Positions 6,059 through 59,980 are shown, counted from the stretch's first letter. The stretch is 64,000 nucleotides of DNA from a virus (IMGVR_UViG_3300001598_000036:1-64000), one strand, 5' to 3'. The notes: generated from the sequence alone by a model not told the origin. Numbers and translations are program-made.

Positions 6059-7732
6059 ATGTCTGAATATCCAACTTCATATAATCCACCTTCCAAAGGA
6101 GACGTCTTAAGCACTCCATACGTAGCTATTAAAGGAGGAATATATGATGATTTAAAAGTAAATTTATTATCTATTTCCTCTGGTAATGAGGGATACGCTA
6201 TAAATGAAGCTGGCGCAAAAGTAGAAGGATTAATTGCCCCATTATTACAATTATTAACTTCTACTATGAATTCAGAAAAAGCTAAAGAAGATAATTTTTT
6301 ACAACACTTTAGCGCAACTATGCCAGATTCTCAATTAAAAAATCAAGTATTAGATTTTATTGATAATGGTAAATTTTCTTTAGCATATGATGCAATACAG
6401 CATTGAAAAGATGGATTATATAATGCTTTAGATAGTTATGAAACAAATATAGATAATTATAACAAATGAGTTCAAAAATATAGAAATAAAGTAGTAAATC
6501 AAGCCATAGAAGATTTACAAGATTATGGTGCGGCCGCGCTAACAAATATTAGTTTAGATACTCCATTAAGTGCTATTCCAGATTTAATTATTAATCGAAT
6601 GGCACAGAATAGTAGTTTAAGTAATAATGAAATACAACAATATACTGAAATATTACAGAAAGCGCTCGGAGATTTGAGTAGTAATTTTACTACTGGGCAA
6701 TGAAATATTCCTTCGGTTGATACTACTTTAAGAGATATACAAACTATGATAGATGAAGGAAAAGCTAATAGTAATATTAAGGGAAAGTTTAAAAATGAAC
6801 TATGAAAATCAGGAGTAAAATCAGGTTACAATAAAAAAGATCGTAGTATCATGGACGCTTGTTTAAGCTATATTTCTGGTTTTACCAATGGATTAACAAT
6901 GGAAGTATTCCTAGAAATATTTGGCGGCGGTGAATCTTCTGGTAGATTTATGACTGAAATTAAATCTTTAACTGGAAAAAATAATTCTATCGGCGCCATG
7001 GAAACTGACGTATTTTCTATATACAATGCTTCTTTTAATTATATTATTCCACAATTTAACACTTTAGAAAATAATACAGAAGAAGATATTAGAAATAAAT
7101 TAAATGAAATTGTTCCCGATGATGGGTTTATAATACATTATTCTGTAAAAGACTATACTGACGGTAAAATTAAAATTAAAGGTAGTGGTAATTTTGATGT
7201 TAGATTGGAAAATATTCAAACTTTGAATAAAGTAGTAGGGATAAAAGAGATTGAACAATTAATTTTTGCAATTGCAAATGGTGCATCTGATATGGTTATG
7301 GGAGGAAATGCTGAAGAAATAAAAGGATGTATAAGTGCTATGTGTTATGCTTATATGTTTGAAGATATGGATAATTTTGTAAGTATTGAAGTAGATCCTC
7401 CAAAAGTTTCTCAAACTGGTCCTACTCATTTACATATTTATTTTGTTAATGGGCATTATATTACAGCATCTGATCTATTAAGAAAAACTATTGATACAAT
7501 TAAAGAAAGTTTACTTAAATTTCGTAATAAGAAAAAATGAGAAGGAGGTTTAGTATCTTCTCCTTCTTTAACTTTACCTCCAGAAGGAATTTATACTTCT
7601 GTTACTAATCAAGGTAAACATCATGGATTAGATAAATGAGAAGCTGTTAGACAAATAAGTTTATCAAAAGGTAAATTTGATGTGCATTTAAGTTTTTCAA
7701 AGTTAAATGAAATAATTACTATTAAGTACTAG
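6059..7732 (+). CDS. hypothetical protein, 557 aa (TGA=Trp)
   Basis: AGGAGG RBS. A single frame broken only by TGA codons and ending at TAG. Confidence 0.75.
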
Positions 7733-7742
7733 TTGTAAAAAT

Positions 7743-7771
7743 TTGACATTTTCCCCAAAATCGCGTATACT
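7743..7771 (+). promoter_or_regulatory. sigma70-type promoter
   Basis: TTGACA-17-TATACT. Confidence 0.8.
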
Positions 7772-7804
7772 ATATATATCAGATACAGGAGGAAACAAAA
7801 CTAA

Positions 7805-9124
7805 ATGTCAAACAGACTCAAGCTCGACTGAACAATCAATTCAACATATGACCGCAAAGCATTTCTCGACACTTATCTCACGCAGATAACCTTCGTTCCA
7901 AACGAAGAAGAAATCGAAATGCTCGGTAACTATATACTTTGGGGCAAAGACATCGACGGAAAATCCGCAGTCCAACGCCACGAAATTACAATTGAGACCA
8001 GAAATAAGACGTGACAGAAAAAAGAGGAAGAATCGCTCGATTCCTTAATCGAGTCCCCTACTTTTAATGAAGCGTCTCTTTTTGGTACGCCGAAAGCCAA
8101 GACTATACGTAACGTCTTCTCAAGAGACGAAGCGTTAAACGAATCGCCCGATTTTCTACGGTCTATTTTCGAGGAACTATTCTCCCAAATTGACTCGTTA
8201 GATCTCGTGATAAACTACTACGACCTCGCGCACGGAAAACGCACAAAACCACCGCGTGAAGAACTACTCGAAAAATTTTCTGCGGCCGACCGCAAAATCT
8301 TACAGGAGAAAGCCGATTCGTTAAATCAGTTCAAATACTTAAAGCTGCGTCACGAACTAGTTGAATTACGTAGACAACAATTTACTCTGCGCGACAGCTA
8401 TCGACCGCAAATCCAACGTACTACTCCACTTCTCCCAAATCTAAACCAACAAACTACAATTTGGGAAGATAATTGTAAGGTTTATCCGCTTGGGGTTATT
8501 AGTCCTGGAAGACTGGGGCGTATATTTTTGGGAGAGGACGAATTAGTACCCGATTCATTTACGGAAGATGATTTAGCTATGGTATCGCGCTTCTATTGGA
8601 AGAAAAAACAAGAACAACGCGATAAACTATTTCTCGACTTTACGAATGAAATGCACGTTGCGGCCATTATGCAAATGTATTTCGAATTAGAAGAATCGGA
8701 CTTAGAAGAAGACTTAGATTCGATGACTGCGCGCCTTATACGTACTTTGGAGTATTATATTAAATTAGCTAAGCTGACCGACGCACAGCGTGAAATCTTA
8801 CAGTGGAAAATAGATAAAAAGACTAATCAGCAAATCGCAATTTATATTAATAAGAAATACGAAAAATCCTATACGATTAATTATATATCAACTATCTTTA
8901 GGAAAAAAATTATCCCAACTATTATCGAAGCAGTAGAATACCACGAAGAAATCGTAGGAAATCTCTTCTTCAAAGAAAATTTCAAAAGATGTACTGGATG
9001 CGGCCGCTTGTTACTTATGGACAAGCACAACTTTATCAAGAAAAGCCGTAGTAAGGATGGATTTTCGAATAAATGTAAAGAGTGTGAGAAGTTAGAACGT
9101 GAGAGAAGAAAGGAGAAAAAGTAA
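7805..9124 (+). CDS. putative sigma-like/HTH regulator with C-terminal zinc finger (TGA=Trp)
   Basis: AGGAGG RBS and two N-terminal TGAs. LTDAQREIL..KTNQQIA resembles a sigma region 4 HTH; CTGC...CKEC is a zinc-finger pattern. Confidence 0.55.
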
Positions 9125-9480
9125 TGACTGGAATATCACAAAAACAAATGAATCAATTTATTAGGTATATACCTCAACTTGAACCGCAAGAATTCGTTGG
9201 ATTAGCGAAATTACTTGGTGTGGTTGTAGTTGAGGATGACGAAGATAAAACGCCAAGAGAATTTGCTGATGTATTAGAAGATGTACTTGAAGCATTTACT
9301 AAATTAAATAGAAAACGCAGAAGAGAATTTATGACTCTACTTAAACAAGTTACGAAGCAGAATATGAAGGATAGAACGTCGAGTGCGGCCGATCCTCAAG
9401 AAACGGTCATCGAAGAAAATCTTGATGCTGCCGCAGACGACGTAAACATAGAGGAGGATGTAGATGGATCCGAAAATTAG
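9124..9480 (+). CDS. hypothetical protein
   Basis: Translationally coupled ORF with RBS. Confidence 0.75.
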   Translation: MTGISQKQMNQFIRYIPQLEPQEFVGLAKLLGVVVVEDDEDKTPREFADVLEDVLEAFTKLNRKRRREFMTLLKQVTKQNMKDRTSSAADPQETVIEENLDAAADDVNIEEDVDGSEN

Positions 9481-10447
9481 TTATGTACCACCATTCACTC
9501 TGCGCGAGTGCGTGAGATGTCATCAACAACTAGGACCATCAGAATTTATACGAACTAAATCCCCATTCTACGAAAAAGGATATATCAATTTGTGTAATAA
9601 TTGTATCAAAGATTTTTTGCGAAGCAAAAATTTCGCTTGGGATGCTGTTGATAAATTATGTCAGTTTGTTGATATTCCTTTTATACCGAATGAATTTGAA
9701 AAATTAAGAATTAATTTTGGAGAAGATGCGTTTGCGCGCTATGCTGATATTTTTCACGAATCGGAATATGAGAATCTTTCGTGGAAAGACTATTTCAACG
9801 AGTTCCAAAAACTTCAAGAAGCTGGCGCCATTGAAGATGAACTGCCGCTTATTAGTGATAGACATCGCAGAGAACTTCAAGAAAAATGAGGGCCGAATTA
9901 TGACGATGAAGAACTCCATTATCTCGAAGCACTCTATGACGGACTCTTAATGACACAAAACGTATCCGGCGCGCTTCAAATAGACCAAGCATTAAAAATT
10001 TGTAAGATTTCACTTTCTTTGGATAGTAAGATTCGCGAAGGAACAGATTTTGATAAAATGCTTGCTTCATATGAAAAACTTGTGAAGGCTGCGGAGTTTA
10101 CTCCAAAGAATGTTAAAAATGCAAGCGACTTTGATTCTGTTGGTGAACTTGTGAAGTGACTTGAAAAGAGAGGATTTAGAAATACTTTCTATGATGATGT
10201 TACTAGAGATGTAGTTGATGAAACTATTAAAAATATACAGAATTATAATCAGAGATTATATACGAATGAATCTGGTATTGGTGAAGAGATTACTCGTAGA
10301 ATTGAAGCATTGAAAAATGCTCAAGAATTAGAGAATTACTACGGAGTATCCGACCAAGAATATGATTTAGATAATTATGATAATGATGGTTATACTGAAT
10401 TAATGAAAGAAGATGAAGAATTCGAAGTTGAACTGGGAGGTGATTAA
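9464..10447 (+). CDS. zinc-finger protein, probable terminase small subunit (TGA=Trp)
   Basis: CVRC...CNNC N-terminus and acidic tail, directly upstream of the large terminase. Confidence 0.5.
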
Positions 10448-13009
10448 ATGAAATCTCTTACTAGTATCAAATTGGGATTATTCAAACCGAAGGATGCGGA
10501 TATTGCTAAACGAGAAGGAATACGTATAGACAAAGGAGCTGTACTTACTCCTGATTATTTAGAAACAATCGAAGAACTACTTAAAAAATATATTAGCTTC
10601 TTTACTGCTTATCCAGATTTATTCTTGGACTTAATAAAACCAAAAGATTCCGAATTTAAACTTTTCTTTTACCAACGAATTGTTTTGCGCGCGGTTATGC
10701 GTTTTAGAGAAGTTAATGTAACCGCGTGTCGTGCATTCTCAAAATCTTTTATTTCTATTTTAGGTATATTCTTACAATGTATATTTATGCCTGGAACTAA
10801 ACGATTTATATGCGCGCCTGCTAAAAATCAGTCGGCGCAAATTGCGAAAGAAAAGATTATGGAAATTTATGAGAAGTGACCTTTACTTAAACGAGAAATT
10901 GAAGCAAATAACTCCAAAGATACGCCAGGAAATTTTGGTAAGGATTATGTTACGCTTAGATTTAAAAATGGTAGTCAGTTTGACGTTGTAGGCGCGCTAG
11001 ATTCCGCCCGTGGTGGACGTAGGCACGGCGGCCTCATTGACGAGATAAGAGATCACGAGGAAAAACCGCTAAATGAAATTGTACTCCCACTTTTAAATGT
11101 ATCTCGTAGACTTCCAGATAACACGGTCAATGATAACGAAATAAATCAACAAACAATAGCTATGACCAGTGCAGGAGTAAAAACATCATTCGCTTATGAC
11201 AAACTTTTAGATATGTTTGAAAAATCTATCATTGATCCAAAATCAGCTTTTGTATTTGGATGTGACTATAGAGTACCTGTACTTCACGGCTTATTAGATA
11301 AAAACTTTATAAACGACTTAAAGATGTCACCATCATTTAACGAAGATTCATTTGCGCGCGAATATGCATCTATATGAAGCGGTTCAAGCGAAGAATCTTG
11401 GTTTAATTTTGAAAAAATTTCTAAGTATAGAAAAATAAAAAACCCAGAAACGCACAAAATTGATAGACCTGGTTCAAATCAATTCTACTTATTATCAGTG
11501 GACGTAGGCAGAATTTCTGACCAGACTGTCTGCTGCGTATTTAGAGTAAATGTTCTTAAAGGAAAATATCATAGTACACTAGTGAATTTATTTGTTTTAG
11601 GACGAACTCCGGAGACGAAACCATTTTCTATCCAAGCTCGTGACTTAAAAGAAATAATAGAGAAATTTGAACCACAAGAAGTAGTAATGGATACTAATGG
11701 CTTAATTACTAGGTCATTTAAAACCCTTTTAATTGCTGGAAACTCCTAACGTAAAGTCGAGGACAATCAGCAGCGAAGTTTAAGAAAGAAGAAAGACTTT
11801 TATAGGAGGTCTAAAATGAAAAAATTAATAACAAGATGTAAATATGATTTAAAATTTGATTATTATATTACTGATGATGGAAGAGTGTGAAGTGATAGAA
11901 CTCAAAAATATTTATCTTATCAGTATGATAAAAACGGATATATAAAAGTTCAAATGCGCTCTACTGATAATAAATCTCATAGATACTCAGTACATCGTTT
12001 AGTAATGGAAAATTTTAAACCTGTAGATGGAATGGAAAATTTACAAGTTAATCATATAGATGGTAATAAACTTAATAATAATTTAGAAAATCTTGAATGA
12101 ACTACTTATAAAGAAAATATTCAACACACTATAAATCATTCATTAAGAGCTGAAATTAATGGTAGCGCAAAATTATCTCCAGAACAAGTTATAGAAATTT
12201 ATAGAAGAGCAACTAATGGAGAGCGTAATATAGATTTAGGTAAAGAATTTAATATTCATCCAGATCAAATTGGTCGAATCAAAAATAAAAAATCTTGAAA
12301 AGAAATTACTTCATCGCTTTCTTAAAAACGTTCAACGACCAGTCGAAAGACGTAGTCTCAAGCGAGACGAAATGGAGGGTACCTTATAGAAGGTAAAGAT
12401 ATGGTCTAATCTTTATGGAAACATAAAGCAGTTTTAAAAACGCATATAAAAGTAGCGATTTATATGGAATGTAATGTAGGAGTAGGACTTGCTGATGAAA
12501 TGATTCGTACGCAGTTGGCGCGCGATGGTCATTTATTGCCGGCTTATGGTTTTACTAATGATGATACTTATAAAAAAGTTCAACCAAAAGATTCAATTAA
12601 AATACTTTATGGTATCAAAGCTAACGGTCCGCTAAATTCTAAAATTCACGGAAACTGTTATTCTCGTTTATCTGGCGGCTTATGTCGTTTTCTTGTTAAA
12701 GAACAAGAAGCTAAAAATATGTTATTATCCACTAAGATTGGTCAAAAAATGAGTGTTGAAAAACGTGTTGAGCGTTTGATGCCTCACGAAATGACCACGA
12801 AATTATTTGAAGAAATGGCTAATTTACGACTCAAAAGAACTGGTACTGGTTTAGATATAGTACTAGAACGAATTAATGAACGTTACCCAAAAGATAAGTT
12901 TTCTGCTTTTGAATATGGCTTATGAAGAATCAAAGAAAAAGAAGAAGAAAATTATTATAGACAAAAGAGAAGAGGTAATATGAATCGTCAATTAGTATTC
13001 TTTTCATAG
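10448..13009 (+). CDS. terL: terminase large subunit; exons 10448-11702 and 12477-13009 (TGA=Trp)
   Basis: Walker A-like CRAFSKS, RGGR..LIDE Walker B, nuclease SVDVGR. The spliced junction reads DTNGLGVGLAD. Confidence 0.9.
11703..12476 (+). mobile_element. group I intron in terL
   Basis: P1 AAUGGCU/GGUCAUU with a U-G pair at the 5' splice site. P AATTGCTGGAAA, Q AATCAGCAG, R GTTCAACGAC, S AAGATATGGTCT and terminal G. Excision restores the frame. Confidence 0.9.
11816..12325 (+). CDS. intron-encoded HNH homing endonuclease (TGA=Trp)
   Basis: VHRLV...QVNHIDGNKLNNNLENLEW with a C-terminal HTH-like domain and AGGAGG RBS. Confidence 0.88.
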
Positions 13010-13017
13010 GAGGAAGA

Positions 13018-14544
13018 ATGGTAATGGAAGATAAAACTAAAAACACTTCCTTGAACAATGAGAAAATTGAAAAGTTAGGAACTTTCCAAAAGGCGACTCG
13101 CGATATGATTGCGACTAGTGATAAAGCCTATTTGGGAGATTGAGCTGATAGATTTAAAGATAATAAAAACAGAGATTATTCATTAGAAGAAATTTTACAC
13201 ATTATAAATGATAATAATCTTACTAAACAAAGACGTCTATCAAATTCATATTATAACAAGGGCGGTTTTTATACTCGAATTCTTACCTATTATGCTACTC
13301 TTTATAAATACACAGGTATATTAATACCTAATCCATCTTTTGGAAAAGATCTCTCCACAGAATTTATACAAAAGAGATATCATAATGCTATGAATTTCGT
13401 AGAAAAAATTGCGATTCCTACTTTTTGCCAAAACTGTGCATTAAAAGCACTTATTGAAGGTTGTTATTATGGAATAATACAAACTTTAGATAAGGATAAT
13501 TTTACAGTTTTAGACTTACCTTCTAAATATTGTTCTTCTCGTTTTAAAGATAAAGCTGGAAATGATTTGATTGAATTTGATGTTAGATTCTTTGATCGTG
13601 TGAGAAATCCAGACCAAAAGAAAGTAACACTTCAAGTTTATCCTAGTGTAATTACTAATTATTATTATAAATGGAAGAAAGGAAAAGTTTTATATCCTTG
13701 AGTTAATGTTCCAAGTGATATTGGAATTTGTTTTCCATTCTACAAAGGACATCCATATTTCTTAAATGTTATTCCTGCGGTAATCAATTATGAAGATTCT
13801 GTAGAAGTAGAAAAAATGAGAGATATAGAAGAAATCAAGAAAATCATTGTTCAGCACGTGCCGCATACTCAAGATGGTAGTTTAGTATTCGAACCTGAAG
13901 AAGCTCAGGTTATGCACGAAGGCGCAGTTAATATGCTTAAGAAAAATGAAAATGTTAGTGTATTAACAAGTTACGCCGATGTTGATGCAATTGTTTCAAA
14001 AACAGCTGCAGATACTGCTTCCAATAATCTTGAGAAAATGATGAATAATATCTATTATGAAGCTAGTGCTAGTAATCAATTATTTGCGGCAACATCAAAT
14101 TTAGCTTTGGATAGATCTATTGAAAATGATATGGCGCTTATGTCGCAGTTAATTAATAAATTCAATATATTTATCACAAATTTAGTTAATAGATTATATG
14201 CGAATAGTAATATTTCATTTAAATATACTATTCTGCCTATTACGCAATATAACACAAAGGATTATATTGATAATGCTTTTAAATTAGCTAGTAGTGGATA
14301 TAGTTTCGTATTGCCTGCATTGGCTATGGGAGTATCCCAAAGAGATTTAGGTAATTTAAAAGACTTAGAAAATGATGTTTTAAAACTAGGAGATAAATTA
14401 ATTCCTTTACAATCTGCTTTTACGCAGAGTGCGGCCGGTGGTCGAGAAGCAGGAAGACCTGAGAAAGACCTCGACCAAAAAAGTCAAAAAACTATTCAAA
14501 ATGAAAAATCATTAGAAAAACAAGGACAAGGAGGCTCTAATTAA
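13018..14544 (+). CDS. portal protein (TGA=Trp)
   Basis: About 508 aa between terL and the protease, with the typical C-terminal AGRP motif. Confidence 0.75.
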
Positions 14545-16028
14545 TGGATTTTAACGAAATTATAAAAGAGTTTTCTGTAGTTGTTTATGGAAATTTAGAG
14601 AGGTATAGTGATACACTTTCTAAAGCAAGATTAAGGATTTTTTATAAGTATGGTAATAGAAATGGTTCATATATTACTGATGAATTTGCAGAAAAATTAA
14701 TCAGTACTTTACCTTATGCTCCTATTAAAGGTATCTATGATGAGTTTAACGAAGATTATACTGATCACGGAGAAGAAAGAACAGAAGGTAGAATATATGG
14801 TTTAGTTCCTGCTAATCCAAACTTCGCGTGGGAAATCCATAAAGACGAGGATGGAGTAGAAAGAGAATATGCTTGTACTGACGTTTTATTATATACAGCA
14901 CTTTATAAAGAAGCTGGAGAAATTTTAGGAAAAGCACAATCTATGGAACTGTACCAACCTTCCATTAAAGGAGAATTTAAATATGTAGATGGTAAAAAAG
15001 TATTTGTATTTACCGACGGATGCTTCTTAGGATTACAAGTCTTAGGTGATGAAACCGAACCTTGTTTTGAAGGTTCTGCATTCTTTAGTCTTTATAATTC
15101 TTTAAAGGACTTAGTAGATAAATTAGATACTTATGAAAAAAATAATCTCAATATTCCAAATAACAATGAAGGAGGAAAAAGAATGAAGGTTAATTTTAAA
15201 CTTTCAGATGGCTCAAAATATGATATGATATTCAATCTTCTGAATCCTGATTATAATGAAGCAGGAGAATGGGATTTAAATTATATCATTAGCGAAGTAT
15301 ATGATGATTATGCTTTAGTCTATGGATGTAAGAGTCGTCAGTATGAGAGAGTATATTATACTAAAGACAACGAAAGTGATACAGTTACTTTAGGCGAATT
15401 TAAGAAATGCTTTATTGTAGATGTAACTGAATCAGAAAAACAGGCATTATGCACTATTCAGGCACTGAATGGCGGCAGCTTCGAACAAGTAGATGAAAAC
15501 TTTGCTTGTAAGACAGAGATGACTGCTATGGAAGAAGAATATGCTAAATGTAAGTGTGATTTAGAGCAAGAATTAAGCGCTTGCAAGACTGCAAATTGCA
15601 CTTTAGAAGAAGAAAAATCAAGTTTTGAACAGAAAATTGAAGAACAAAACAACTCAATTGCTACTTTAACTTCAGAAAGGGATGAATTTAATTCTAAGTA
15701 TACTGAAGCTACAGAGCAAATTGAAAGTTTGAATAATACAATTACTGAGTTACAAGAATATAAACTCACAAAAGAAACTGAGGAAAAAACAGCTCTCCTT
15801 GACAGATATGCTGCTAAGTTAACTGATGATATCGTTCAGAAATATACTGAAACTTTAACAGAGTTCACTTTAGAAAGTCTTGATAAGGAACTGGCATTTG
15901 AATTAGTTAAATCAAATCCTTCAATCTTCTCACTGGATGCTAATGAAAATCAGAATTTCATTCCTAAAGATGAAGGTTATGAAAAAAGCGATATCGAAAA
16001 TTTACTCGATAAGTATGAAAATAAATAA
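14544..16028 (+). CDS. prohead protease/scaffold protein
   Basis: NRNGS..H..QSMEL..GLQVLG protease-like N-domain, coiled-coil C-terminus, position before the capsid gene. Confidence 0.7.
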   Translation: MDFNEIIKEFSVVVYGNLERYSDTLSKARLRIFYKYGNRNGSYITDEFAEKLISTLPYAPIKGIYDEFNEDYTDHGEERTEGRIYGLVPANPNFAWEIHKDEDGVEREYACTDVLLYTALYKEAGEILGKAQSMELYQPSIKGEFKYVDGKKVFVFTDGCFLGLQVLGDETEPCFEGSAFFSLYNSLKDLVDKLDTYEKNNLNIPNNNEGGKRMKVNFKLSDGSKYDMIFNLLNPDYNEAGEWDLNYIISEVYDDYALVYGCKSRQYERVYYTKDNESDTVTLGEFKKCFIVDVTESEKQALCTIQALNGGSFEQVDENFACKTEMTAMEEEYAKCKCDLEQELSACKTANCTLEEEKSSFEQKIEEQNNSIATLTSERDEFNSKYTEATEQIESLNNTITELQEYKLTKETEEKTALLDRYAAKLTDDIVQKYTETLTEFTLESLDKELAFELVKSNPSIFSLDANENQNFIPKDEGYEKSDIENLLDKYENK

Positions 16029-16045: not shown

Positions 16046-16603
16046 ATGGCTTTTAAAAGAATGACAATTGACGGTTATGGTCAATTAGAATTAAATAACG
16101 TAGCGTTCCGTAGAGATGGCAGAATTGAAGCTCAGTGCAAGCTTAGTGCTACTGATTTCGCTAATATGGATGCTGAAAACGGAATGGTATTTGCAGTTGA
16201 TAAGTCAAAGGCAGAACTGAAACTGGTAGCTGCTGATAATATTTTACCAATTGCTATCAATTACAGTACAGAACATATGTACGATGAAAGAAAGAACGCT
16301 CTGAAAGACTTTAAGATTTCATTAAAGGATAACGAACAGTTCTTACCAAGAATGGGTTATCTCGCAATGGGAGACTTATTCACAACTAACTGTATCGGTT
16401 ATGAAGATAGTGAATTTACTTCCGAAGAAGCTTTCATTACTGCACTTGGCGCACTCGCAACTACTCCACTGTATGCAGTAGTAAGTGACAAGGGAGCTTG
16501 GAAAGTAACAGCCACTGCAACTGGCGCATACGCTAAAGTTATTAAGAAGACTACAACTCCTGATGGAATTCAGAAGGCTGTACAACTTCAAATTCTGAAA
16601 TAA
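16046..16603 (+). CDS. capsid decoration/minor head protein
   Basis: Lies between the scaffold and MCP genes, with high-expression codon bias. Confidence 0.55.
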   Translation: MAFKRMTIDGYGQLELNNVAFRRDGRIEAQCKLSATDFANMDAENGMVFAVDKSKAELKLVAADNILPIAINYSTEHMYDERKNALKDFKISLKDNEQFLPRMGYLAMGDLFTTNCIGYEDSEFTSEEAFITALGALATTPLYAVVSDKGAWKVTATATGAYAKVIKKTTTPDGIQKAVQLQILK

Positions 16604-16623: not shown

Positions 16624-17670
16624 ATGGCAGATATTAAAACTTTAAAAGAATTAGCCCTTCATAGCGCTAAAGGTACTGCTCCTGCTAACTATTCAGTTCA
16701 GAGTGTAGATGAAGCGTTAATGGACGGTTTTAAAGAAATGGCTGGTTCATATCTCCAGTTTATGAAGAATAGATATGACATTTTCGAAATTATGGTAGAA
16801 ACTATTGACAACGTTGTTCCTAATAGAGTAATCGACGCTGTTGGTATCTTCGCAGAAGTTAAACAGGTTCCACAAGGAACTAAGGCTATCTTCAAGCAGA
16901 AGGCTGGTAAGGAAAGAGCTAAGAAATTCCTTACTCAGGTTGGTCTTTCAGGTGTATATGAGACATTCAGACTCGACCACGTAATCTATGAAATTCCAGC
17001 TCACGCTGTAGGCGGCGCTGCTACAATCGATTTCGAAAGATTCCTCGATGGAGCAGAAACAATGGCAGAACTGATGGAAATCCTGACAATTGGTCTGACT
17101 GATTCAGTTTATCTCGAAGTACAGAAGTGCTTAAGAGCTGCTATGAATGACGTTAAGAGACCTGCAAAGAATAAGTATTCATCAAATACTTTCGAAGCAG
17201 ACAAGATGGTTAAGCTGATTAACGTAGTAAGAAGTTATGGTACTGACGTAGTTATCTTCGCACCACCTGAATTCATTGCTGAAATGGGAGCAGATGCTAT
17301 CGTACCAGTTGGCGCAAACTATCGTGGTATTTATCATCCACAGGATATCGATGCTATTCATAATTCTGGATACATCAATATCTTTAGAGGAGTTCCAGTA
17401 GTTAAGATGGCTCAGGCTTACACTGACAAGACTAACGAAAAGACTTGGATCGATCCACAACTCGCTTACATTTTCCCAACTGGAAAAGAAAGAGTTGTTA
17501 AGGTTGTTCTTGAAGGACAGACTCAGATGCACGATTACGTGAACAGAGATCAGTCAATGGAAATCGAAGTTTATAAAAAGATTGGTGCTGGTATCATCAC
17601 TCATCACAATTGGGCAATTTACCAGAACTATGGAATCACTCAGACTTTCGAATCACCTTATGGTATGTAG
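16624..17670 (+). CDS. major capsid protein
   Basis: 348 aa, strong codon bias, IFRGVPVV motif, followed by a terminator. Confidence 0.8.
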   Translation: MADIKTLKELALHSAKGTAPANYSVQSVDEALMDGFKEMAGSYLQFMKNRYDIFEIMVETIDNVVPNRVIDAVGIFAEVKQVPQGTKAIFKQKAGKERAKKFLTQVGLSGVYETFRLDHVIYEIPAHAVGGAATIDFERFLDGAETMAELMEILTIGLTDSVYLEVQKCLRAAMNDVKRPAKNKYSSNTFEADKMVKLINVVRSYGTDVVIFAPPEFIAEMGADAIVPVGANYRGIYHPQDIDAIHNSGYINIFRGVPVVKMAQAYTDKTNEKTWIDPQLAYIFPTGKERVVKVVLEGQTQMHDYVNRDQSMEIEVYKKIGAGIITHHNWAIYQNYGITQTFESPYGM

Positions 17671-17741: not shown

Positions 17742-18203
17742 ATGGAAAACAAGAAAATTATGGTAGAAAGCTTAGTAAGCGGAAATATTGGAATTAGAAT
17801 TCCAGAATTAAATCTTGCAAGAGTATGGGAACATAAAGGAGTAAAGAAGGGAATTAATTTTGATGTGCTTGAAGAAGCATTATACGATCCTGGCGTTGAA
17901 ACTATGTTTAAAGAAGGTATTCTTGGAGTATCAAAAGAAGATGCAATTGCGCTCGGTCTTACAGAAGAAGGAAGAGGAGAAGTTAGCGTAGTATTAGATG
18001 ACTTCCAGCGTAAAAGAATGATGACTTTAATGCCAGTAGCAGAATTTAAAGAAAAATTAGCAGAATTAAGCTATGCACAACTTATGGAATTAGTTGATTT
18101 TGCAGTAGAGAATGAACTTACTGATATCGAAAAATGTTCAATTATTAAGGATATGACTGATAAAGATATCATTAAGATGGTACAATTAGAAAGAGAAGAC
18201 TAA
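17742..18203 (+). CDS. hypothetical virion/assembly protein
   Basis: ORF with RBS following the MCP gene. Confidence 0.7.
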   Translation: MENKKIMVESLVSGNIGIRIPELNLARVWEHKGVKKGINFDVLEEALYDPGVETMFKEGILGVSKEDAIALGLTEEGRGEVSVVLDDFQRKRMMTLMPVAEFKEKLAELSYAQLMELVDFAVENELTDIEKCSIIKDMTDKDIIKMVQLERED

Positions 18204-18214: not shown

Positions 18215-18685
18215 ATGACTCCACTTTCAAAAGTTTACGATGCTTTTTTAAGTAAACAATTAGATGACGAATGAACTGGTTGGGAAGTAGAACAGATGGA
18301 AAAGGATTGGAGAACTTTCCTTGATGCCGCAATTCCTCTGTTTAAATTTCCTAAAGTAGACTTAGATATAGATGAAGAAACTCAATCATTTGTTGGAGAT
18401 TTAAAGAATTCCGAGATTCAAATTTTAGCTACTTATATGAAATGTGAATGATTAAATCGTACTATTCTTACGTGGGAACATATTAAACCTATGTATGAAG
18501 AAAAAGATTTTTCTGAAGCTAATCTAATTGATAAGTTAAATGACCTTTTAGAATTTGAAAGAAAAAATGCTAAACAATTAGAATCGATTTACTATCGCTC
18601 AATTAACGGAAAGCCTTTTGACTATACTAAATTAGCAAGTGAGAATAATACTACAAGTGTCAGAAATAAGAGAAGGATACGATAA
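18215..18685 (+). CDS. putative head-tail adaptor (TGA=Trp)
   Basis: AGGAGG RBS, position, and frame continuous through two TGAs. Confidence 0.5.
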
Positions 18686-18908
18686 TAAATTAAAATCAAT
18701 GCTTTACGGTTTATTGTGCGAGTATGAAAAAGATGGTAATTGAGAAGAATTTTTAGATAGTATTCTTATTCAATTACTCGGATATGAAGAAGAATCTAAA
18801 ACAATTAATTATTACATTTTATTTTATAATCTTTCTTCTTTAAGATATTTAAGGCATAAATATTTTAGAAAGAAAATTTTTGAATCAATAGGATTGGTTG
18901 GTAAATAA
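18639..18908 (+). CDS. small hypothetical protein (TGA=Trp; start uncertain)
   Basis: Open frame filling the gap; its TAATG overlaps the next start codon. Confidence 0.5.
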
Positions 18909-19630: not shown

Positions 19631-20121
19631 TGACTGTACGTAATTATTCCGAAATGGGAGAAAATTTACATAAAATCATTTCTCGATTAATGGCTAATGA
19701 TAATTTAGTTAAATTATTATATTATACAGAAAAAGATCCTTTGGCGCAACCGAATTTAACAGAAGAACAAAAACAAAAAGAAGTTTTTGGTAAACTGATT
19801 AAATTTATACCGGTAGTTGGGCCAAAGGAAACCGCTCATTCAGTTATAGCAGTTAGAATATCTAGCGCGCGAAATATAAATTGAAATCAAGAGTTTCAAA
19901 ATATTTCAATTTCAGTTGAAATATTCACACCTTTTGATGAATGAGCAATTAAAAACGAAAATTTACGACCATTTATGATAATGGGAGAAATACAAAAAAG
20001 TTTGCATAATAAAACAATAAATGGTTTAGGTAAAATGTTAGGCGGCGACTTCGATTTAAACTTTTTAACAGAAGAACTTTCGTGTTACGAGCAAACTTTT
20101 ACAATACAGACTTATGATTAA
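19630..20121 (+). CDS. putative tail completion protein (TGA=Trp)
   Basis: Size and position before the tail tube gene; frame continues to TAA 20119-20121. Confidence 0.5.
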
Positions 20122-20908: not shown

Positions 20909-20932
20909 ACAAAATAAGGAGGCTATTTAACT

Positions 20933-21812: not shown

Positions 21813-21831
21813 ATATCGGAGGAAGAAAATA

Positions 21832-52607: not shown

Positions 52608-53444
52608 ATGTTAGGAGATGTTTCTACTTTTAATATTTCTGAAAAGAGATTAGTTAAAATATTAATCACTAATTTACCGAATAAGACTAATTATATTCAT
52701 GGAGAAATATTAGATTTAACAGGATTAGAAATTAGAGCATTATATAATTATGGTTCTTCACAAATTATTAATAATTATATTACTTCTCCAGCATCGGGAG
52801 CTTCGGTATCAACTAATGATACAAAAGTTGTTGTAAGTTATACAGAAAATAATATTACGTGTACTGCGGAATTTAATATTAATGTAAGACGACAGTTGAG
52901 TAGTATTCAATTATCTGGAACATATACTACATCATATTATGCTGGAGATGAATTAGATTTAGATGGGTTAGTAGTAACTGCTTATTATAATAATAATACA
53001 TCTCAAATTGTAACTAATTATACTTCTTCTCCAGTAGAAGGTACTATATTAACTACTTCTACAACTAATGTTATTATTTCTTATAGCGAAGAATCTGTTA
53101 CTAAAACAGCTCAATATAATATTACAGTAGAAGATCCAGTTAGAACAATTACTATTTCAGGAACAGGAAATAGTAGTTATTGTTATGTTAGTATTGATGG
53201 GTCAAAGAAAACTGCTTCAGGAAGCTATACAGTGGATAAAGGAGATACAATTATTTTCGGTGTATATGGTAGAAGCAGTACTTATTATGGAGAAGTAAAA
53301 ATTGATGACACACAAGTACTAAAAGTTACTAATCAAACAACTAAAACTTATAATTATATAGTAAATAATAATTTAACAATATCTTTATCTTATACTTCTA
53401 GTAGTTCAACTCGAAGAGGAAGAATTACTGTAATAACTTCATAA
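52608..53444 (+). CDS. bacterial Ig-like (Big) repeat protein
   Basis: Two K/T.Y..GE.LDL.GL.V.A.Y repeats. Confidence 0.75.
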   Translation: MLGDVSTFNISEKRLVKILITNLPNKTNYIHGEILDLTGLEIRALYNYGSSQIINNYITSPASGASVSTNDTKVVVSYTENNITCTAEFNINVRRQLSSIQLSGTYTTSYYAGDELDLDGLVVTAYYNNNTSQIVTNYTSSPVEGTILTTSTTNVIISYSEESVTKTAQYNITVEDPVRTITISGTGNSSYCYVSIDGSKKTASGSYTVDKGDTIIFGVYGRSSTYYGEVKIDDTQVLKVTNQTTKTYNYIVNNNLTISLSYTSSSSTRRGRITVITS

Positions 53445-53457
53445 AGAGGAGAAAACA

Positions 53458-55515
53458 ATGATAGGAAGAACAAACGCAGGAGGAAATGCAGCAAATACTA
53501 TTACTAGTATAATTATTACAACTCCTCCTACTAAAACAGTCTATAATGCTGGAGAAACAGTTGATTTAACTGGTATTATAGTAAAAGCAAATTGAAAAGA
53601 TGGCTCGCAAGAAACTATAACAAATTCTTGCACTTTTAATCCAGCTAGTGGTACAGTTATTTATGAAACAACTACTTCTATTGATATTTCATACTATGAT
53701 AAAATTACAGGAGTAACATTTAGAGCTTCACAAGATATTACTGTAAATAGAATACCTAATTCATTAGTAATTGTTTCAGAACCCACTAAAACTGAATACG
53801 AAGCTGGAGAAACTTTAGATTTAACAGGATTAATAGTAAAAATAATATACAACTCAGGAGCAGAAAATACTACAAGTAATTATACAACAAGTCCTGCAGG
53901 AGGAAGTGAATTAACAGGCGGTACAAGTAGCGTTTTAGTTAGTTATACAGAAAATAGTATTACAGTAAGTAATAGTTTTAATATTACTGTAAATATTGGT
54001 ATAGCTTTATGGAGTGATCCAAATGCTACAACAGCTGATTTATTAGCTACCATCGCAAAAGCAGAAAGTGGAAAAATTGATTTGTCTACTTATTGAAGTA
54101 TTGGTGATACGAGAACAGTTACACTTCCGGCGATTTCGACTACTTCGGGTACTTATGATGGTATTAATTGAAGTGTTGGAGAGACTCATACTTCGCAAAA
54201 AATTGATTTAGTATTGATGGATTACTTGCCTAATGGATTTAGTATTGATGGTTATAAACCATTGTATGTAGTAGGAATGAAAGATTCATTAGCTACTAAG
54301 GGATATATGAATTCATCAGACACTAATACTGGTGGTTGAAATTCTTCTAAACGTAGAGGATGATGTAATCAAGCATTTAAAACTGCTATTGATTCTGTAT
54401 TATCTGGAATTTTTAAACAGTTTAGTTGACAAACTGGTATTGGTGGAGGGGCATCTTCTGGATTGCAGAATGCTTGTAGTGATTATTTTGGGTTAACGCC
54501 AGAAAAATGTATATTTGGTTCTAGGAGTTATTCTATTACCGATGAAGCGAACTTATTTAATCAATGAGAATATTATACTACTTCATCAAATAGGATTAAA
54601 AAATTAGGTAAAACTGGTTCCACTACCAGTTGGTGAGAGTGTTCTCCTTCTTCAGGGAACTCCGACCGTTTCTGTTATGTCGACTACAACGGTTCCGCCT
54701 ACGGTTACATTGCGAGCGGTGCTAGTGGCTTAGCGCCTTTCGGCTGTATCGGCAAATCTACTACGATTGCTCCAAAATCATTCGCAAGTGCTACTGACGC
54801 AGAAATCACTGCGATGGTCGCCGCCCATGACGCTGGCCAAATCGATTTAACAGAAATTTGAAGCGTTGGTGACCAACGTACAGTTCAACTTTCTGCTATG
54901 ACAGCTACTGGCGTTGGAGAATCGCATGTAGCACAAAGTCAGACATTGGTGTTGATGGATTCTACATGTGATGGATTTACGATTACAGGAACGAATAAGA
55001 AACCAACTTTTATTGTTGGATTGAAGAATTTTTTAGCGAAGGGAACTAGTGAAGAATATGGATATATGAATTCAACCGATACTAATACTGGAGGATGAAA
55101 TTCTTGCGCTAGAAGAACTTGGTGTAATAATGTGTTTAAAAATGCTTTACCAAGTGCATTATTACCAGCATTTAAACAATTTACTTGGCAAATAGGTAGA
55201 GGTGGAGGAGCTACTTCTGGATTAATATCTTCTGATGATTATTTTGCTTTACCTCCGGGAAAAGCAATATTTGGTAGTACAACCCATTATGCTCAAACTG
55301 ATGAAGATAATTTATTTAATCAATGAGAATATTATACTACTAGTGCTAATAGAAAAAAATATCCAGGAGACAGTAGTACTTCCGCTGACTATTGGTGAGA
55401 GTGTTCTCCTTGTTCAGGGGACTCCTACGGTTTCTGTTATGTCGCCTACACCGGTGGCGCCGACTATTACTATGCGAGCGATACTAGTGGCTTAGCGCCT
55501 TTCGGCTGTATCTAA
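53458..55515 (+). CDS. DGR target receptor-binding protein: 2 Ig-like and 2 CLec-like domains (TGA=Trp)
   Basis: Two duplicated domains (WS.GD.RTV..GYMNS.DTNTGGW..WWECSP..GLAPFGCI), each ending in a variable repeat. Confidence 0.85.
54619..54750 (+). repeat. DGR variable repeat VR1
   Basis: Homologous to VR2 and TR, with differences at codon positions 1-2. Confidence 0.88.
55381..55512 (+). repeat. DGR variable repeat VR2
   Basis: At the 3' end of the target gene; shares its IMH-like end and downstream AAATCTACT with VR1. Confidence 0.9.
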
Positions 55516-55588
55516 AATCTACTAAATCTACTTATACGTAGAAAATAAATTCGTTATAACTTATTAAAAAGCAATATAAATCTAAATT

Positions 55589-56014
55589 ATGACTGTACCT
55601 ACATATAAAAGATCTGTTTCTCCAGCCCAATTTATAGAAGAAACACGACAATTAAATATACGATTAGGACAAATTATTATGAATTATCCTACAAAATATA
55701 GACAAAATTATGGTGATTTTTTAATTAAATCAGCTTTAAAGGCATTACAATTACTTCAAAGCGCTAATAAAATATTTATAACTAAAGAATTACCAAAAGA
55801 ATTAAAATTAATACGTTATAAAAAAATCATAGAAGCAGAGGGGATAATAGAGAATATTTCCTCTAGCTTTTCAATTTATGCAGGCCTTCTATCTAATAAA
55901 GATGGAATTAATAGAGAGAAATTAGCTAATCAAGAAGTAGAAATAGGAACACAATGTTTTAATATTATAAATCTTCTCGATGGCTTACAAAAAAGTGATA
56001 AAAAATATCACTAA
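55589..56014 (+). CDS. avd: DGR accessory protein Avd
   Basis: Basic helical 141-aa protein (MTVP..KRS...YP.KYR...SAN.I) between the target gene and TR. Confidence 0.75.
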   Translation: MTVPTYKRSVSPAQFIEETRQLNIRLGQIIMNYPTKYRQNYGDFLIKSALKALQLLQSANKIFITKELPKELKLIRYKKIIEAEGIIENISSSFSIYAGLLSNKDGINREKLANQEVEIGTQCFNIINLLDGLQKSDKKYH

Positions 56015-56031
56015 AGGTTATTTACTGCTAA

Positions 56032-56160
56032 ATCGCTAGCGTTTGGTGAGAGTGTTCTCCTTGTTCAGGGTACTCCTACGATTTCTGTTATGTCACCTAC
56101 AACGGTGACGCCTACACTATCAGTGCGAGCTATACTAGTGGCTTAGCGCCTTTCGGATGT
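56032..56160 (+). ncRNA. DGR template repeat position (TR), atypically depleted of AAY codons
   Basis: Non-coding third copy between avd and RT with a divergent IMH*-like 3' end (GGATGTAAA versus GGCTGTATC). Confidence 0.75.
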
Positions 56161-56311
56161 AAAATGTAGGTAGAAGAGTAGTATATATGAAATTATACCA
56201 TTAAAAATAATTAAAAATATTTTTATATTTTACAGGAGTGAATAAACCCAGTATTTATACTAAATTAGATTCATGATTTATATTGCTTTAACGTCAATTA
56301 TAAATATACAC

Positions 56312-57343
56312 ATGATGACTCAACCAACTTTTGAAGAAGTATTTACTCCATCTCATTTAATGGAGGCCGCGCATAAATGTTGTAATAACGTTAGATGAAA
56401 ACGTTCTACACAATTATTTGAATTAAATCAATCTATTGAAATTGCTAAACTATATAAAGAATTAATGAATGGAACATATATTTCTAAAGGATTTAATAAA
56501 TTTAGTATTATTGAAAGAGGTAAAAAACGTAATATTCAAGCAGTTCATATTACTGAACGAGTTGTTCAAAAATGTTTATGTACTTATTTTTTAAGACCTC
56601 TATTAGAACCAAAATTAATTATTGCAAATGCAGCTAGTTTACCTGGAAAAGGAACTGATTATAGTATTAATAGATTAAAAAAAGATTTAATTTCACATTA
56701 TAGAAAATATGGAAGAGAAGGCGGTATTTTATTATTAGATTATAAAGATTTTTTTAATTCTATTCCTCATATAAAAATTTTAAATATGTTAAAATATATG
56801 ATAGAAGATGAAAAAATTTTTGATTTAACTTCTAATTTTGTAACTGCTTTTAAAGGAGAGAAAGGATTAGGATTAGGTAGTGAAGTATCACAAATGTTAG
56901 CCATTTATTATCCTAATATTATAGATCATTATATTAAAGAACATTTATATATTAAAGGATATGGTAGATATATGGATGATAGTTATTTAATACATCAAGA
57001 TTTAAATTATTTAAAATATTGTTACAAAAAAATTTATAATTTAAATCAAGATTTACAATTATCAATGCATAAATGTAAAATAGTTAAATTTAATCAATAT
57101 TTTACTTTTTTAAAGAAAAAGTTTTTTATAACCAAAACAGGAAAAATTATTATAAATATAAAACGTCAAAATATTACACATCATAGAAATAAATTAAAAA
57201 AATTATATAAAAAAAGAGTAAATCCTATTCATTCCCATCAAGCGTGAAAAGGATATGCTTTAAATTACAATAGTTACAATACTGTACAAAAAATGGATTT
57301 ATTATATAATAATCTATTTACAGAGGAGGGAAAAAATGACTAA
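56312..57343 (+). CDS. DGR reverse transcriptase (TGA=Trp)
   Basis: ERGKKR, LLLDY.DFF.SI.H, GLGLGSEVSQ (DGR-type SQ), RYMDD, FTFL; 343 aa. Confidence 0.92.
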
Positions 57344-57708: not shown

Positions 57709-57737
57709 TTGACTTCTTCTAAAAAATCTAGTATAAT
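57709..57737 (+). promoter_or_regulatory. sigma70-type promoter
   Basis: TTGACT-17-TATAAT following a terminator (57664-57700). Confidence 0.75.
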
Positions 57738-57764
57738 AAATATATAAAATCAAAGGAGGAATCT

Positions 57765-58157
57765 ATGAATATCCAATTAACAAAAGTAATAAACTTTAAT
57801 GAATTTCTTACAAAAATACAATCATACGAAATGTCTATTTCTCTCGCTTATAAAATCTATTCAATGGCAGAAGAAATAGATAAAGAAAATAAATTTTATT
57901 ATGAAAAATTACAAAAAATCATAAGCGAATATGCTAAAAAAGATGACGAAGGTGAGTATCAAATGTCCGAAGACGGAACTCAAATTCTAATCAAAGAAGA
58001 ATGTATTGAACAATGCAACAAAGAAATGGAAGAATTAAATACTTGTGAAGTAGAATTAAATATCCAAAAATTACAACTCAAAGAATTAGAAGCCATACCA
58101 GAATTAAAATTAACTCTCGCAGAACTCGCAAGTATTAAAGACTTTATCGAAGAATAA
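57765..58157 (+). CDS. hypothetical phage protein (DUF1617-like)
   Basis: Acidic helical ORF with its own promoter and RBS. Confidence 0.6.
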   Translation: MNIQLTKVINFNEFLTKIQSYEMSISLAYKIYSMAEEIDKENKFYYEKLQKIISEYAKKDDEGEYQMSEDGTQILIKEECIEQCNKEMEELNTCEVELNIQKLQLKELEAIPELKLTLAELASIKDFIEE

Positions 58158-58191
58158 AAAAAGAACTCTTTTAATAAGAGTTCTTTTTTTT
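58156..58191. terminator. bidirectional terminator
   Basis: A-tract-GAACTCTT/AAGAGTTC-T-tract between convergent genes. Confidence 0.8.
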
Positions 58192-59980
58192 ATTCTCATT
58201 CTACTATTTCTGGAACAGATAGAACTGATTCACTCATATATTTTCCAATACCAATAGCATCTGCGACATCTTCATTTACACTTATATCATATCACTGTTT
58301 AATTAAATATTGAGTACTTCGTTTTTTATCCACCCTTGTATTATGAGTAACAATATAATCACCTACAAGAAATAAATGTTCTGGATTATCAACTAAAAAA
58401 CAAGTCATTTCTTCTTGATAATTTAAATATTCTATATTAATAATAGGATTATATTTAAATTTATAATTATTTATTAAATTATTTTTTTTATAATCTATAG
58501 TTACTAATTCTTTTTTTATATTTGGATTTCCATATAATGATACAATATATGATATTTGTTTCCCAAATCCTCTTGGCTGTACTAATTGTATATTACTACT
58601 TAATCCTAAACTAAAAACTATTTCTTGCACTTGATAGGCTAATGTTTTACTAATAGTAGTAAAACGCATTCTTCCACCACTCGTACTTCCATCAGTATCA
58701 ATTAAACCTTGTAATATCTGTATTCTATCTTCTATACTACTAGTTAAATACATTTGAGGTATAAATTTATTTTGAGAATTAGTATTTATTAATTCAGGAA
58801 ATTCAGATAAAAAATCTTTTATTTGTACATTTTTATGACCATATTTTTTTATTATTTTTTTATCTTTATAAGAAAAATAATAAGTATAATTTAGATTACC
58901 AGATTTTTTAATATCTCAATTCATTATAGAAGCAATTTTTTTAGGAAGAAAATCGTTTTTACTACTGAATTGTAATACTCGATTTTTATCTTTTCCTAAT
59001 CTAAAACTACCATCTCCAAGCATACATCCTAATATATATGGTAATATAGGTAATTCTTTTTTAGTATACTCAACTGGATAACAATAAGGAACTAATATTT
59101 TGTATTCTTTTCTAGAAGATTTAATTCCTATATTTATTATTTCTTCACAAGTTTTAGTTTTAAATTGTCTATTTTTTTTTGCTAGTTCTCTTTGTCTTAA
59201 AGTATTAAAACTTCATAAATGATCTTTACTACAATATATAAAACGTCCATCTTTAAAAGTAATTTTTACTACATCTAATTTACCCTGCGGATAAACAGCT
59301 AGTACTTTTGTTGGTTTACCTAAAGCGTCAAATAGTATATCATTAGTAGTAATTTCTCCTACAGTTTTTCATCCATTAATAGTAGGTATTTTTGTTGAAT
59401 TTGTAATACTTCTTCCTTTAACTCCACAATGATGTCTTCATGTATTCGTAGGACATATACTATATTTATATCCCAAATCGTAGCATAATTCTAGTAGAAT
59501 ACCTTGTAGGCGCGCGAGCTTCTCAAACGTAGTAACACCAAACGACTGTTGATACTGTATACCTTCAATACCAATATAATCTGGTTTCCATGCATCAAGC
59601 ATCGATATCAATCATACTTTTACTTCATGGTCGCGCGCAACATCATCAGCTAATTGCGTTTCAAAAGTTCCATAAGTAATTAATTCATCATTATCAAAAA
59701 CAGAGTATCCTGTTATTTTAGTAGATTGATCGAGCGCAAGTATTCGTTTTGCGCCCGACTTCTTTTTCCTAATTTTTGTATTGATATCTTTATACTGATT
59801 TGATGCACAAACAGGACACTCGCGCCGAGTACGTATTTTACCTCATGTAGAATATACTCGATGTCCTTCTTCACACACAAATACTAAAGGTTCATTTAAA
59901 TTTTTATATGTTTCACTAATACACTTTCAACCATATTCTTTTAATTCTTCGTTTATTGTATCTATTGAATATTTAGCCAT
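58190..59980 (-). CDS. RuvC-like Holliday junction resolvase with N-terminal zinc ribbon, intein-containing (TGA=Trp)
   Basis: ILALDQST..TGYSV, IGIEGI, P.TW, EDVADAIGI; C..GH...CPVC N-domain. Confidence 0.8.
58340..59410 (-). mobile_element. class 3 intein with LAGLIDADG endonuclease (357 aa)
   Basis: Block A SITNSTKIPTINGWKTVGEI, B DHLW, F MTCFLVD, G IVTHN/T; endonuclease motifs LGCMLGDG and QGLIDTDG. Confidence 0.85.

Follow-up and report, generated by a model that had tools for sequence, protein, structure and literature searches.

Predicted reading of TGA as tryptophan in late, lysis and homing-endonuclease genes of a 126-kb phage, with a candidate intron-split tRNA(UCA)

TGA alone interrupts the late genes

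The window analysed here covers the first 64,000 nucleotides, about half, of one virus record in IMG/VR that is 126,454 bp long (IMGVR_UViG_3300001598_000036; G+C content 31.5%). It holds a late block of packaging, head, tail and diversity-generating retroelement (DGR) genes, many of which carry in-frame TGA codons. CheckV estimates the completeness of the record at 100%; the record is linear, and a search for a terminal repeat found none. Under the standard bacterial code (table 11) the interval between 6 and 58 kb breaks up into many short open reading frames (ORFs), and reading TGA as sense turns these into long unbroken genes without any frameshift. These frames are broken by TGA only, and TAA and TAG do not break them. 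An initial annotation had claimed that TGA is recoded as Trp between 6,059 and 59,980 and that it interrupts the terminase, portal, tape measure, distal tail (Dit), Tal, reverse transcriptase and RuvC genes without frameshifts. Each of these genes is indeed an uninterrupted frame when TGA is sense. The recoding is thereby confirmed. It is not confined to the stated range, since it continues at 84-97 kb and 104.7-108.2 kb, and eleven genes inside the range are free of TGA.

Coding density, calculated from greedy ORFs over the whole genome, rises from 0.717 under table 11 to 0.902 with TGA as sense. This is the highest of the readings tried, with 0.793 for TAG and 0.845 for TAA as sense, and it answers the comparison of code 4 with code 11 that had been proposed as a check. 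Between 10 and 60 kb, in five bins of 10 kb each, density increases from 0.50-0.76 to 0.89-0.99, with values of 0.97-0.99 up to 50 kb, and the longest ORF grows from 1329 aa to ~3950 aa. Credible genes contain 214 in-frame TGAs in total, 34 of them in a single ORF. In relatives, TGA terminates 16-32% of the genes that encode 100 aa or more; in this phage it could do so in at most three genes, each of which has a TAA or TAG 2-5 codons further on. The base that follows TGA shows no bias (p = 0.30), as would be expected of a dedicated decoder more than of leaky read-through. An annotation under table 11 loses the tape measure, tail, lysis and terminase genes of this genome.

Not every long code-4 frame is a gene. 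The plus-strand ORF at genome 80,830-81,918 (L013:16830-17918; 362 aa, 13 TGAs) was rejected as an ORF-calling artefact antisense to real genes, since its TGA/AGA "conservation" is that of TCA/TCT serine codons on the opposite strand. It was removed together with 26 other purine-poor ORFs prior to the final codon tally.

The amino acid at TGA positions

All proteins were aligned to those of relatives with every in-frame TGA masked as X, after the purine-poor ORFs had been taken out. The main comparison used ten whole related phage genomes, nine with the standard code and one that is TAG-recoded, and gave 537 aligned cells at 87 TGA positions. Trp occupies 66.9% of these cells, always encoded by TGG, followed at a distance by residues such as Phe (5.0%) and Tyr (4.7%). 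Gly falls outside the ten commonest residues and so makes up less than 1.3% of the cells, compared with 5.7% in the background. The yardstick is the set of TGG codons in the phage itself, which in the same ten genomes are aligned with Trp in 63.6% of 1427 cells, over a background of 1.23% for Trp. The TGA positions therefore behave like Trp positions. Five more distant phages have Trp at 22 of 54 TGA cells and Gly at none of the 54.

On this comparative evidence TGA is almost certainly read as Trp (code 4). The preference for Trp over Gly in the initial annotation is upheld by the very observation that it had named as able to overturn it, the residues found opposite TGA in homologues. Its individual motifs fared less evenly. 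NLEw in the HNH protein, DHLw in the intein and VRwK in the reverse transcriptase are all present with their Trp (w) encoded by TGA, and the NLEw position stands opposite Trp in I-HmuI (PDB 1u3e); the Mtd_N motif RGTAAEW was not found. The VRwK position is a weaker example than claimed, falling opposite Arg in the Bordetella DGR reverse transcriptase structure. Alignment of TGA with Trp had also been claimed for a pair of tail-tube paralogues, and this was half right: one of the two TGAs of the gene at 21790-22617 is opposite the sole Trp of its paralogue at 20933-21664 and the other is opposite Lys. Comparison of paralogues inside the genome was in general uninformative at TGA positions (Tyr 5, Phe 4, Trp 1).

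Genes of the late block

The genes described here lie on the plus strand unless stated otherwise. The first recoded ORF of the late block (6059-7732; 557 aa, 6 TGA, 0 TGG) has no match in Pfam, PHROG or NCBIfam. The next gene (7805-9124; 2 TGA, 4 TGG) encodes a protein weakly annotated as sigma-factor-like, with Trp in relatives at both TGA positions. Its annotation comes from one PHROG (phrog_5767 "sigma factor", E = 6.6e-19), and searches of PDB and NCBIfam gave nothing useful. This gene stands at the head of the late block, and making its product requires decoding of TGA. If the protein drives late transcription, the code switch would act upstream of late transcription.

The packaging module begins with a phrog_3314 protein (9464-10447) and continues with the N-terminal piece of the large terminase (10448-11749; phrog_9, phrog_15503), each with two TGAs that are both Trp in relatives. 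An HNH homing endonuclease (11816-12325; 3 TGA, 0 TGG) separates this piece from the C-terminal one (12464-13009), whose single TGA is Trp in relatives and which is 66% identical to part of the terminase of the TAG-recoded relative, IMGVR_UViG_3300021387_000025 (hereafter G001). Both pieces match one 601-aa ORF of G001, so the large terminase appears to have been split in two by an insertion carrying the endonuclease; Rfam did not detect a group I intron in the region. The portal protein follows (13018-14544; phrog_2739, E = 3.8e-59; 2 TGA). Pfam gave almost no matches to the packaging and head proteins.

Four head genes (14544-16028, 16046-16603, 16624-17670 and 17742-18203) are free of TGA and contain 6 TGG between them. 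The gene at 16624-17670 encodes the major capsid protein, judging by its matches to those annotated in Bacillus phages Thrax1 and Thrax3. Recoding resumes in four head-tail connector genes (18215-20121), with 2, 1, 2 and 4 TGAs, most of them Trp in relatives, and is absent again from the tail genes at 20114-21664 (0 TGA, 2 TGG). The latter include the major tail or tube protein (20933-21664), whose matches are to proteins annotated as major tail or tail tube. The recoded tube paralogue (21790-22617; 2 TGA) precedes a tape measure protein of 3951 aa (22678-34533; PHROG tape-measure families) that has 34 TGA and only 4 TGG. Downstream of it lie Dit (34642-35640; phrog_33; 2 TGA), a Tal-like minor tail protein (35653-42039; 26 TGA, 1 TGG) and two large tail or baseplate proteins (42051-44462, 12 TGA, 2 TGG; 44475-47393, 13 TGA, 0 TGG). 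The Tal-like protein and the first of these two match minor-tail/tail-fibre PHROGs.

A DGR module occupies 52608-57343. It consists of a DGR-type reverse transcriptase (56273-57343; RVT_1; PDB 8ub7 reverse transcriptase, E = 3.6e-13; 2 TGA), a small ORF (55589-56014) and two paralogous Ig-like proteins, of which the first (52608-53444) is TGA-free and the second (53458-55515; Big_3 and DUF6273; 12 TGA, 5 TGG) is the likely DGR target. On the minus strand, a RuvC-like resolvase gene containing a LAGLIDADG intein (58190-59980) has 9 TGA and 1 TGG, with Trp in relatives at 9 of 9 TGA positions. The replication block starts beyond it, also on the minus strand (59980-63948 within the window), and runs to ~101.7 kb; apart from its nuclease genes, Trp is encoded in this block by TGG only.

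Where TGA is used and where it is spared

The use of TGA differs sharply along the genome. Early genes at 1-6 kb have 0 TGA and 12 TGG, the late block at 6-57.6 kb has 136 TGA and 40 TGG, the region at 57.6-101.7 kb has 36 TGA and 142 TGG, and the region at 101.7-126 kb has 42 TGA and 95 TGG. Between 59,980 and 101,700 there are 36 TGA-free genes (9412 aa, including DnaE, helicases and a GyrB-like protein) that together contain 124 TGG. DnaE alone (genome 67289-71275) accounts for 20 of these. The TGA-rich genes outside the late block are mainly GIY-YIG and LAGLIDADG homing endonucleases at 84-97 kb, which sit inside or between replication genes, the lysis cassette and the RuvC-intein gene; a few other genes carry single TGAs. 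The recoded lysis cassette (104.7-108.2 kb) encodes endolysins with C39-like, GH25 and PG_binding domains.

Within the late block, the eleven TGA-free genes include those for the major capsid and the tail tube. Six head and tube genes have 0 TGA and 8 TGG, as compared with 136 and 27 in the other late genes (Fisher p = 1.5e-6). Standing at ancestral Trp positions, TGA has thus replaced TGG in most late genes, and none occurs in the replication genes or in those for the major capsid and tail tube.

We also observe that several replication genes at genome 72,566-90,066 (L013/L014) are in pieces, with TGA-rich endonuclease ORFs between the pieces. The pieces at 72566-72952 and 73978-75231 flank a GIY-YIG gene, those at 81964-83763, 85035-85328 and 86437-86655 are parted by two nuclease ORFs, and that at 87180-87533 is separated from the GyrB-like piece at 88582-90066 by another GIY-YIG gene; in all three cases the pieces match a single ORF of G001. 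Apart from the intron at 92 kb described below, Rfam detected no group I intron between 64 and 104 kb. A full-length ROOL RNA (RF03087, 287.5 bits; L014:19345-19964, plus strand; genome 103,345-103,964) lies directly upstream of the lysis region.

A relative gates largely the same genes with TAG

The relative G001, with ~49% mean protein identity to this phage, has TAG recoded and encodes 29 tRNAs, including one with anticodon CTA. Its TAGs fall mostly in orthologues of the genes that bear TGA here. They number 8 in the sigma-like orthologue, 4 and 8 in the two terminase ORFs, 9 in the portal, 59 in the tape measure, 37 in a tail gene, 10 in RuvC and 11 in a GIY-YIG gene. The genes spared here are for the most part spared in G001 as well, with no TAG in DnaE, in the capsid gene (13 CAG) or in the tube gene (9 CAG). 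Two exceptions are the orthologues of the TGA-free genes at 14544-16028 and 20114-20908, which carry 6 and 5 TAGs. The match between the two distributions suggests that two different stop codons have been recruited independently for one gating pattern in one phage family.

Relatives and host

Through its portal, capsid and tube proteins the phage is distantly related to large siphoviruses of Bacillota, namely phAss-1, Enterococcus phages EF1/VRE9, Bacillus Tsamsa/PBC2-like phages, Lactococcus 949-like phages, Brevibacillus phage Sundance, and Clostridioides and SPbeta-like phages. Hosts of the named relatives are Enterococcus, Bacillus, Lactococcus, Clostridioides and Staphylococcus. The ten IMG/VR genomes used above share gene order with the phage at 44-51% mean protein identity, and 9 of the 10 use the standard code, G001 being the tenth. 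A search for related loci with the portal alone found no close relatives. Ten loci related by their major capsid protein appeared TGA-recoded when viewed locally; the five that were fetched whole proved to have the standard code, and the local appearance is explained by small genes and genuine TGA stops that lower the density.

The GH25 endolysin, searched against genome contigs for a host, gave no match. The phage probably infects Gram-positive bacteria of the gut or rumen, with a Bacillota host that uses the standard code. We infer the host's code from the TGA-free early genes and the standard-code relatives.

A candidate decoder at 92 kb

The initial annotation had suggested a search of the rest of the genome for a tRNA-Trp(UCA), a tryptophanyl-tRNA synthetase (TrpRS) or a release factor. 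No canonical tRNA with a UCA or CCA anticodon is present among the six tRNAs that ARAGORN and Rfam find in the genome (Thr, Gln, Leu-UAA, Lys, Ser and Met), and no release-factor or class Ib synthetase (TrpRS) domain was found in it. The genome does contain a non-canonical candidate with anticodon UCA, whose gene is split by an intron.

This tRNA-like gene lies outside the window on the plus strand, at genome 92,028-92,324 (L014:8028-8324; splice sites by homology). A group I intron of 226 nt (genome 92,058-92,283) divides it between positions 34 and 35, after U34, and matches RF00028 at L014:8064-8265 (56.4 bits, gathering score 50; E = 1e-13). The joined flanks of 30 and 41 nt form a 7-bp acceptor stem (AGGGGUG/CACCCCU), an anticodon stem with the loop CUUCAAA, and an encoded CCA. 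All four stems are intact, with compensatory changes relative to L246, the nearest homologue. The candidate has an A1-U72 pair and G73, and these are identity elements of bacterial tRNA-Trp. A 12/12 match to the sigma-70 promoter is found ~220 nt upstream of the gene (L014:7777-7805), and a strong terminator 25 nt downstream of it (L014:8349-8380).

Several observations count against a functional tRNA. ARAGORN did not call the joined exons a tRNA, even with all 5′/3′ joins and relaxed thresholds, and the Rfam tRNA model has no match at the 92-kb locus. The D loop is 3-5 nt long and has no GG, the T loop is AGCGUUA and not UUCGAAU, there is a C-A mismatch at 27:43, and the candidate lacks the extra arm of 24-27 nt that its four intron-split UCA counterparts possess. 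The element could be a decayed copy. As for the intron, its splice sites are placed by homology, the junctions matching those of some 60 homologous phage tRNA introns; a convincing U-G wobble pair at the 5′ splice site was not found, and no P1 guide with such a pair could be defined by hand. The T loop of L246 is likewise non-canonical (GGCAGUA), which points to a remodelled elbow rather than to random decay. Weighing these features, we consider it moderately likely that the 92-kb tRNA is a working decoder of UGA.

Intron-split UCA tRNAs in other phages

The tRNA-intron locus has no blastn match in 80 GyrB-anchored loci, and in INPHARED blastn found only a partial match to the intron core, in a 735-kb phage. 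A scan for the conserved intron core identified 58 IMG/VR contigs (L185-L242). In most of the contigs that ARAGORN -i can call, the intron splits a phage tRNA gene of canonical form between nucleotides 34 and 35. The host gene is in most cases tRNA-Leu(UAA), and the others are called as Leu(CAA), Ala, Ser, Thr, Lys and Phe. Most members of this family share with the 92-kb intron the 3′ end GUAGUAAG. Many of the 58-contig introns carry homing-endonuclease ORFs. In one of the related phage genomes (G003:C1:20893-21720), a canonical tRNA-Leu(UAA) gene is interrupted by a homologous intron that contains an HNH ORF.

A second scan, for 3′ exons that start with CAAA, found nine further contigs, 8 of which start with CAAAACC; two of the nine are called by ARAGORN as intron-split tRNA-Trp(tca). 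Three contigs were fetched whole (G011, G013 and G015) and all three are TGA-recoded; reading TGA as sense lifts their density from 0.64-0.71 to 0.88-0.91. None of the three has a match to the capsid protein of this phage. The five UCA tRNAs, including the one at 92 kb, have G73 and the loop CTTCAAA in common, with stems maintained by compensatory changes. Those of L243, L244, L246 and L247 have a variable arm of 24-27 nt whose loop contains UCCAAA or CUCCAAA. This sequence is a copy of the tRNA-Trp CCA anticodon loop, and it could provide a second recognition site for TrpRS on a UGA-decoding tRNA.

Comparison with known systems

The recoding itself is established biology, and this phage adds one more case. 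The survey by Borges et al. is reportedly published in Nat Microbiol (2022). Its preprint (Borges et al., bioRxiv 10.1101/2021.08.26.457843) describes gut phages, with Firmicutes and Bacteroidetes of the standard code as hosts, in which TGA is recoded to Trp or TAG to Gln, so the initial annotation was correct that stop-codon recoding is known in gut phages. With tRNAscan-SE in bacterial mode, the same study detected a TGA suppressor in only 35% of the code-4 genomes, and its authors suspected non-canonical tRNAs. At 126.5 kb, with TGA as Trp and low G+C, the present genome resembles its ~127-kb "Agate" lineage, a likeness that consists of genome size and recoding pattern. As in the phages of that study, structural and lysis modules are recoded and replication genes are not, close relatives have the standard code or recoded TAG, and homing or intron endonucleases within early genes prefer TGA. 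TGA stops are more frequent in the standard-code relatives here (16-32% of genes) than in the close relative of Agate (2.7%; Borges et al.). The preprint gives no account of intron-split suppressor tRNAs or of a sparing of major virion genes; the word "capsid" is absent from its text.

The Jade phage of the same survey provides a close functional parallel, with a code-change operon of TrpRS, release factor 1 (RF1) and tRNA(UCA), a TGA-to-Trp switch in Firmicutes, and recoded lysis genes (Borges et al., Fig. S6). Unlike Jade, the present phage has no TrpRS or release-factor domain that we could find, so its tRNA, if working, must use the host's TrpRS and compete with release factor 2 (RF2). The proposed Phassvirus phAss-1 (PMC10607447) is a distant relative (29% identity in the portal, 36% in the capsid), likewise a large gut siphovirus with a stop codon recoded mainly in virion genes and a predicted host among Clostridia/Bacillota. 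It differs in that TAG is read as Gln and three canonical tRNA-Sup(CTA) genes are present. Regarding the intron, insertion at 34/35 after U34 and membership of RF00028 are as in the group I introns of cyanobacterial tRNA-Leu(UAA) (Hausner et al. 2014, PMC3984707), with the differences that the anticodon here is UCA and the gene belongs to a phage. All phage group I introns known at the time of that 2014 review were in protein-coding genes (PMC3984707). The literature searched contains no mention of a group I intron in a suppressor tRNA, and later reports may exist elsewhere. Three features thus go beyond the papers compared: a suppressor candidate split by an intron, capsid and tube genes that escape recoding, and the use of two different stop codons for parallel gating within one family.

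How UGA may be decoded

The distribution of TGA is consistent with a switch of the code during infection. Early genes would be translated under the host's code while a phage-made opal-suppressor tRNA accumulates; the candidate tRNA would be charged by the host's TrpRS. Only then would the minor virion proteins, the lysis cassette, the homing endonucleases, the DGR and the sigma-like factor be made, and late and selfish genes would be gated at translation by the TGA codon. Suppression would compete with the host's RF2 and cost yield, and this is the likely reason why the abundant capsid and tube proteins do without TGA. We consider a phage-driven switch in a standard-code host very probable, and the account as a whole, code 4 in part of the genome of a phage with a standard-code Bacillota host, probable. 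There is about an even chance that the switch is made by an opal-suppressor tRNA-Trp(UCA) of reduced structure, encoded by a gene that a predicted self-splicing group I intron interrupts at 34|35.

Beyond the features of the tRNA itself, three points weigh against this account. The code of the host is inferred rather than observed. Since the record is linear and has no terminal repeats, a canonical suppressor could sit beyond one of its ends. Finally, the consensus sigma-70 promoter suggests that the tRNA is transcribed early, which makes a sharp late "switch" less certain.

The explanation that survives best after this one is that the phage has no working tRNA. UGA would then be read by the host's tRNA-Trp(CCA) as a near-cognate, with a putative phage factor that weakens RF2, or by a suppressor of the host, and the tRNA-like gene would be a relic. 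The lack of a canonical tRNA(UCA) in ARAGORN and Rfam searches, the non-canonical D and T loops and missing extra arm of the candidate, and the detection of suppressors in only 35% of code-4 phages (Borges et al.) all agree with this explanation, and inefficient decoding would fit the lack of TGA in the most abundant virion proteins. However, the 214 in-frame TGAs, with 34 in one ORF, would demand very efficient read-through, TGA has no leaky context, and there is no release-factor-like gene. The four stems of the candidate are intact and show compensatory changes, and intron-split UCA tRNAs accompany TGA recoding in three unrelated contigs. We therefore regard the absence of a working phage tRNA as unlikely.

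A second alternative is that the host itself uses code 4 and that the phage simply follows it. In Mycoplasma and Spiroplasma, where code 4 is native, UGA is read by a TrpRS-charged tRNA-Trp(UCA), as it is by the opal suppressors derived from E. coli tRNA-Trp; the reassignment is genome-wide and RF2 is lost. Recoding here is limited to some gene classes of a virus. The low G+C content of 31.5% would suit a Mycoplasma- or Spiroplasma-like host, as would the lack of a canonical suppressor tRNA, release factor or TrpRS and the near-absence of TGA as a terminator genome-wide. Native code 4 in such AT-rich DNA would, however, make TGA common everywhere, and the 36 replication-block genes have 124 TGG and 0 TGA. 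Furthermore, family-level relatives are TAG-recoded or use the standard code with TGA stops, and the named ones infect standard-code Bacillota. A code-4 host is accordingly quite improbable.

The remaining two explanations have a negligible chance. TGA is read as Gly (code 25) in phages of Absconditabacteria and Gracilibacteria, and code 25 phages do occur in gut metagenomes (Borges et al.), but the scarcity of Gly at the 537 aligned cells (<1.3% vs 5.7% background; 0 of 54 in distant phages) beside 66.9% Trp refutes this reading. The notion that the genome is decaying or misassembled and the TGAs are true stops, or that selenocysteine is inserted or read-through occasionally occurs at them, has only the fragmented look under table 11 to recommend it and is refuted by interruption by TGA alone, the absence of frameshifts, the conserved Trp positions and the recurrence of the same partition with TAG in G001.

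Significance for code change in phages

Returning to the phage-driven switch, the fact that largely the same genes are gated and the same high-copy capsid and tube genes are spared with two different stop codons suggests that suppression is costly and that the recoded codon serves as a filter on dosage or timing. If the 92-kb gene does encode the decoder, splicing of its intron or slow accumulation of the tRNA could time the translatability of late, lysis and selfish genes. An intron-split, non-canonical tRNA is a plausible answer to how code-4 phages that seem to lack a suppressor read UGA, and such UCA tRNAs, which standard finders miss, could explain part of the ~65% of code-4 phages in which no suppressor has been detected. 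With standard, TAG-recoded and TGA-recoded members in one phage family, this group offers a good system in which to study changes of the genetic code.

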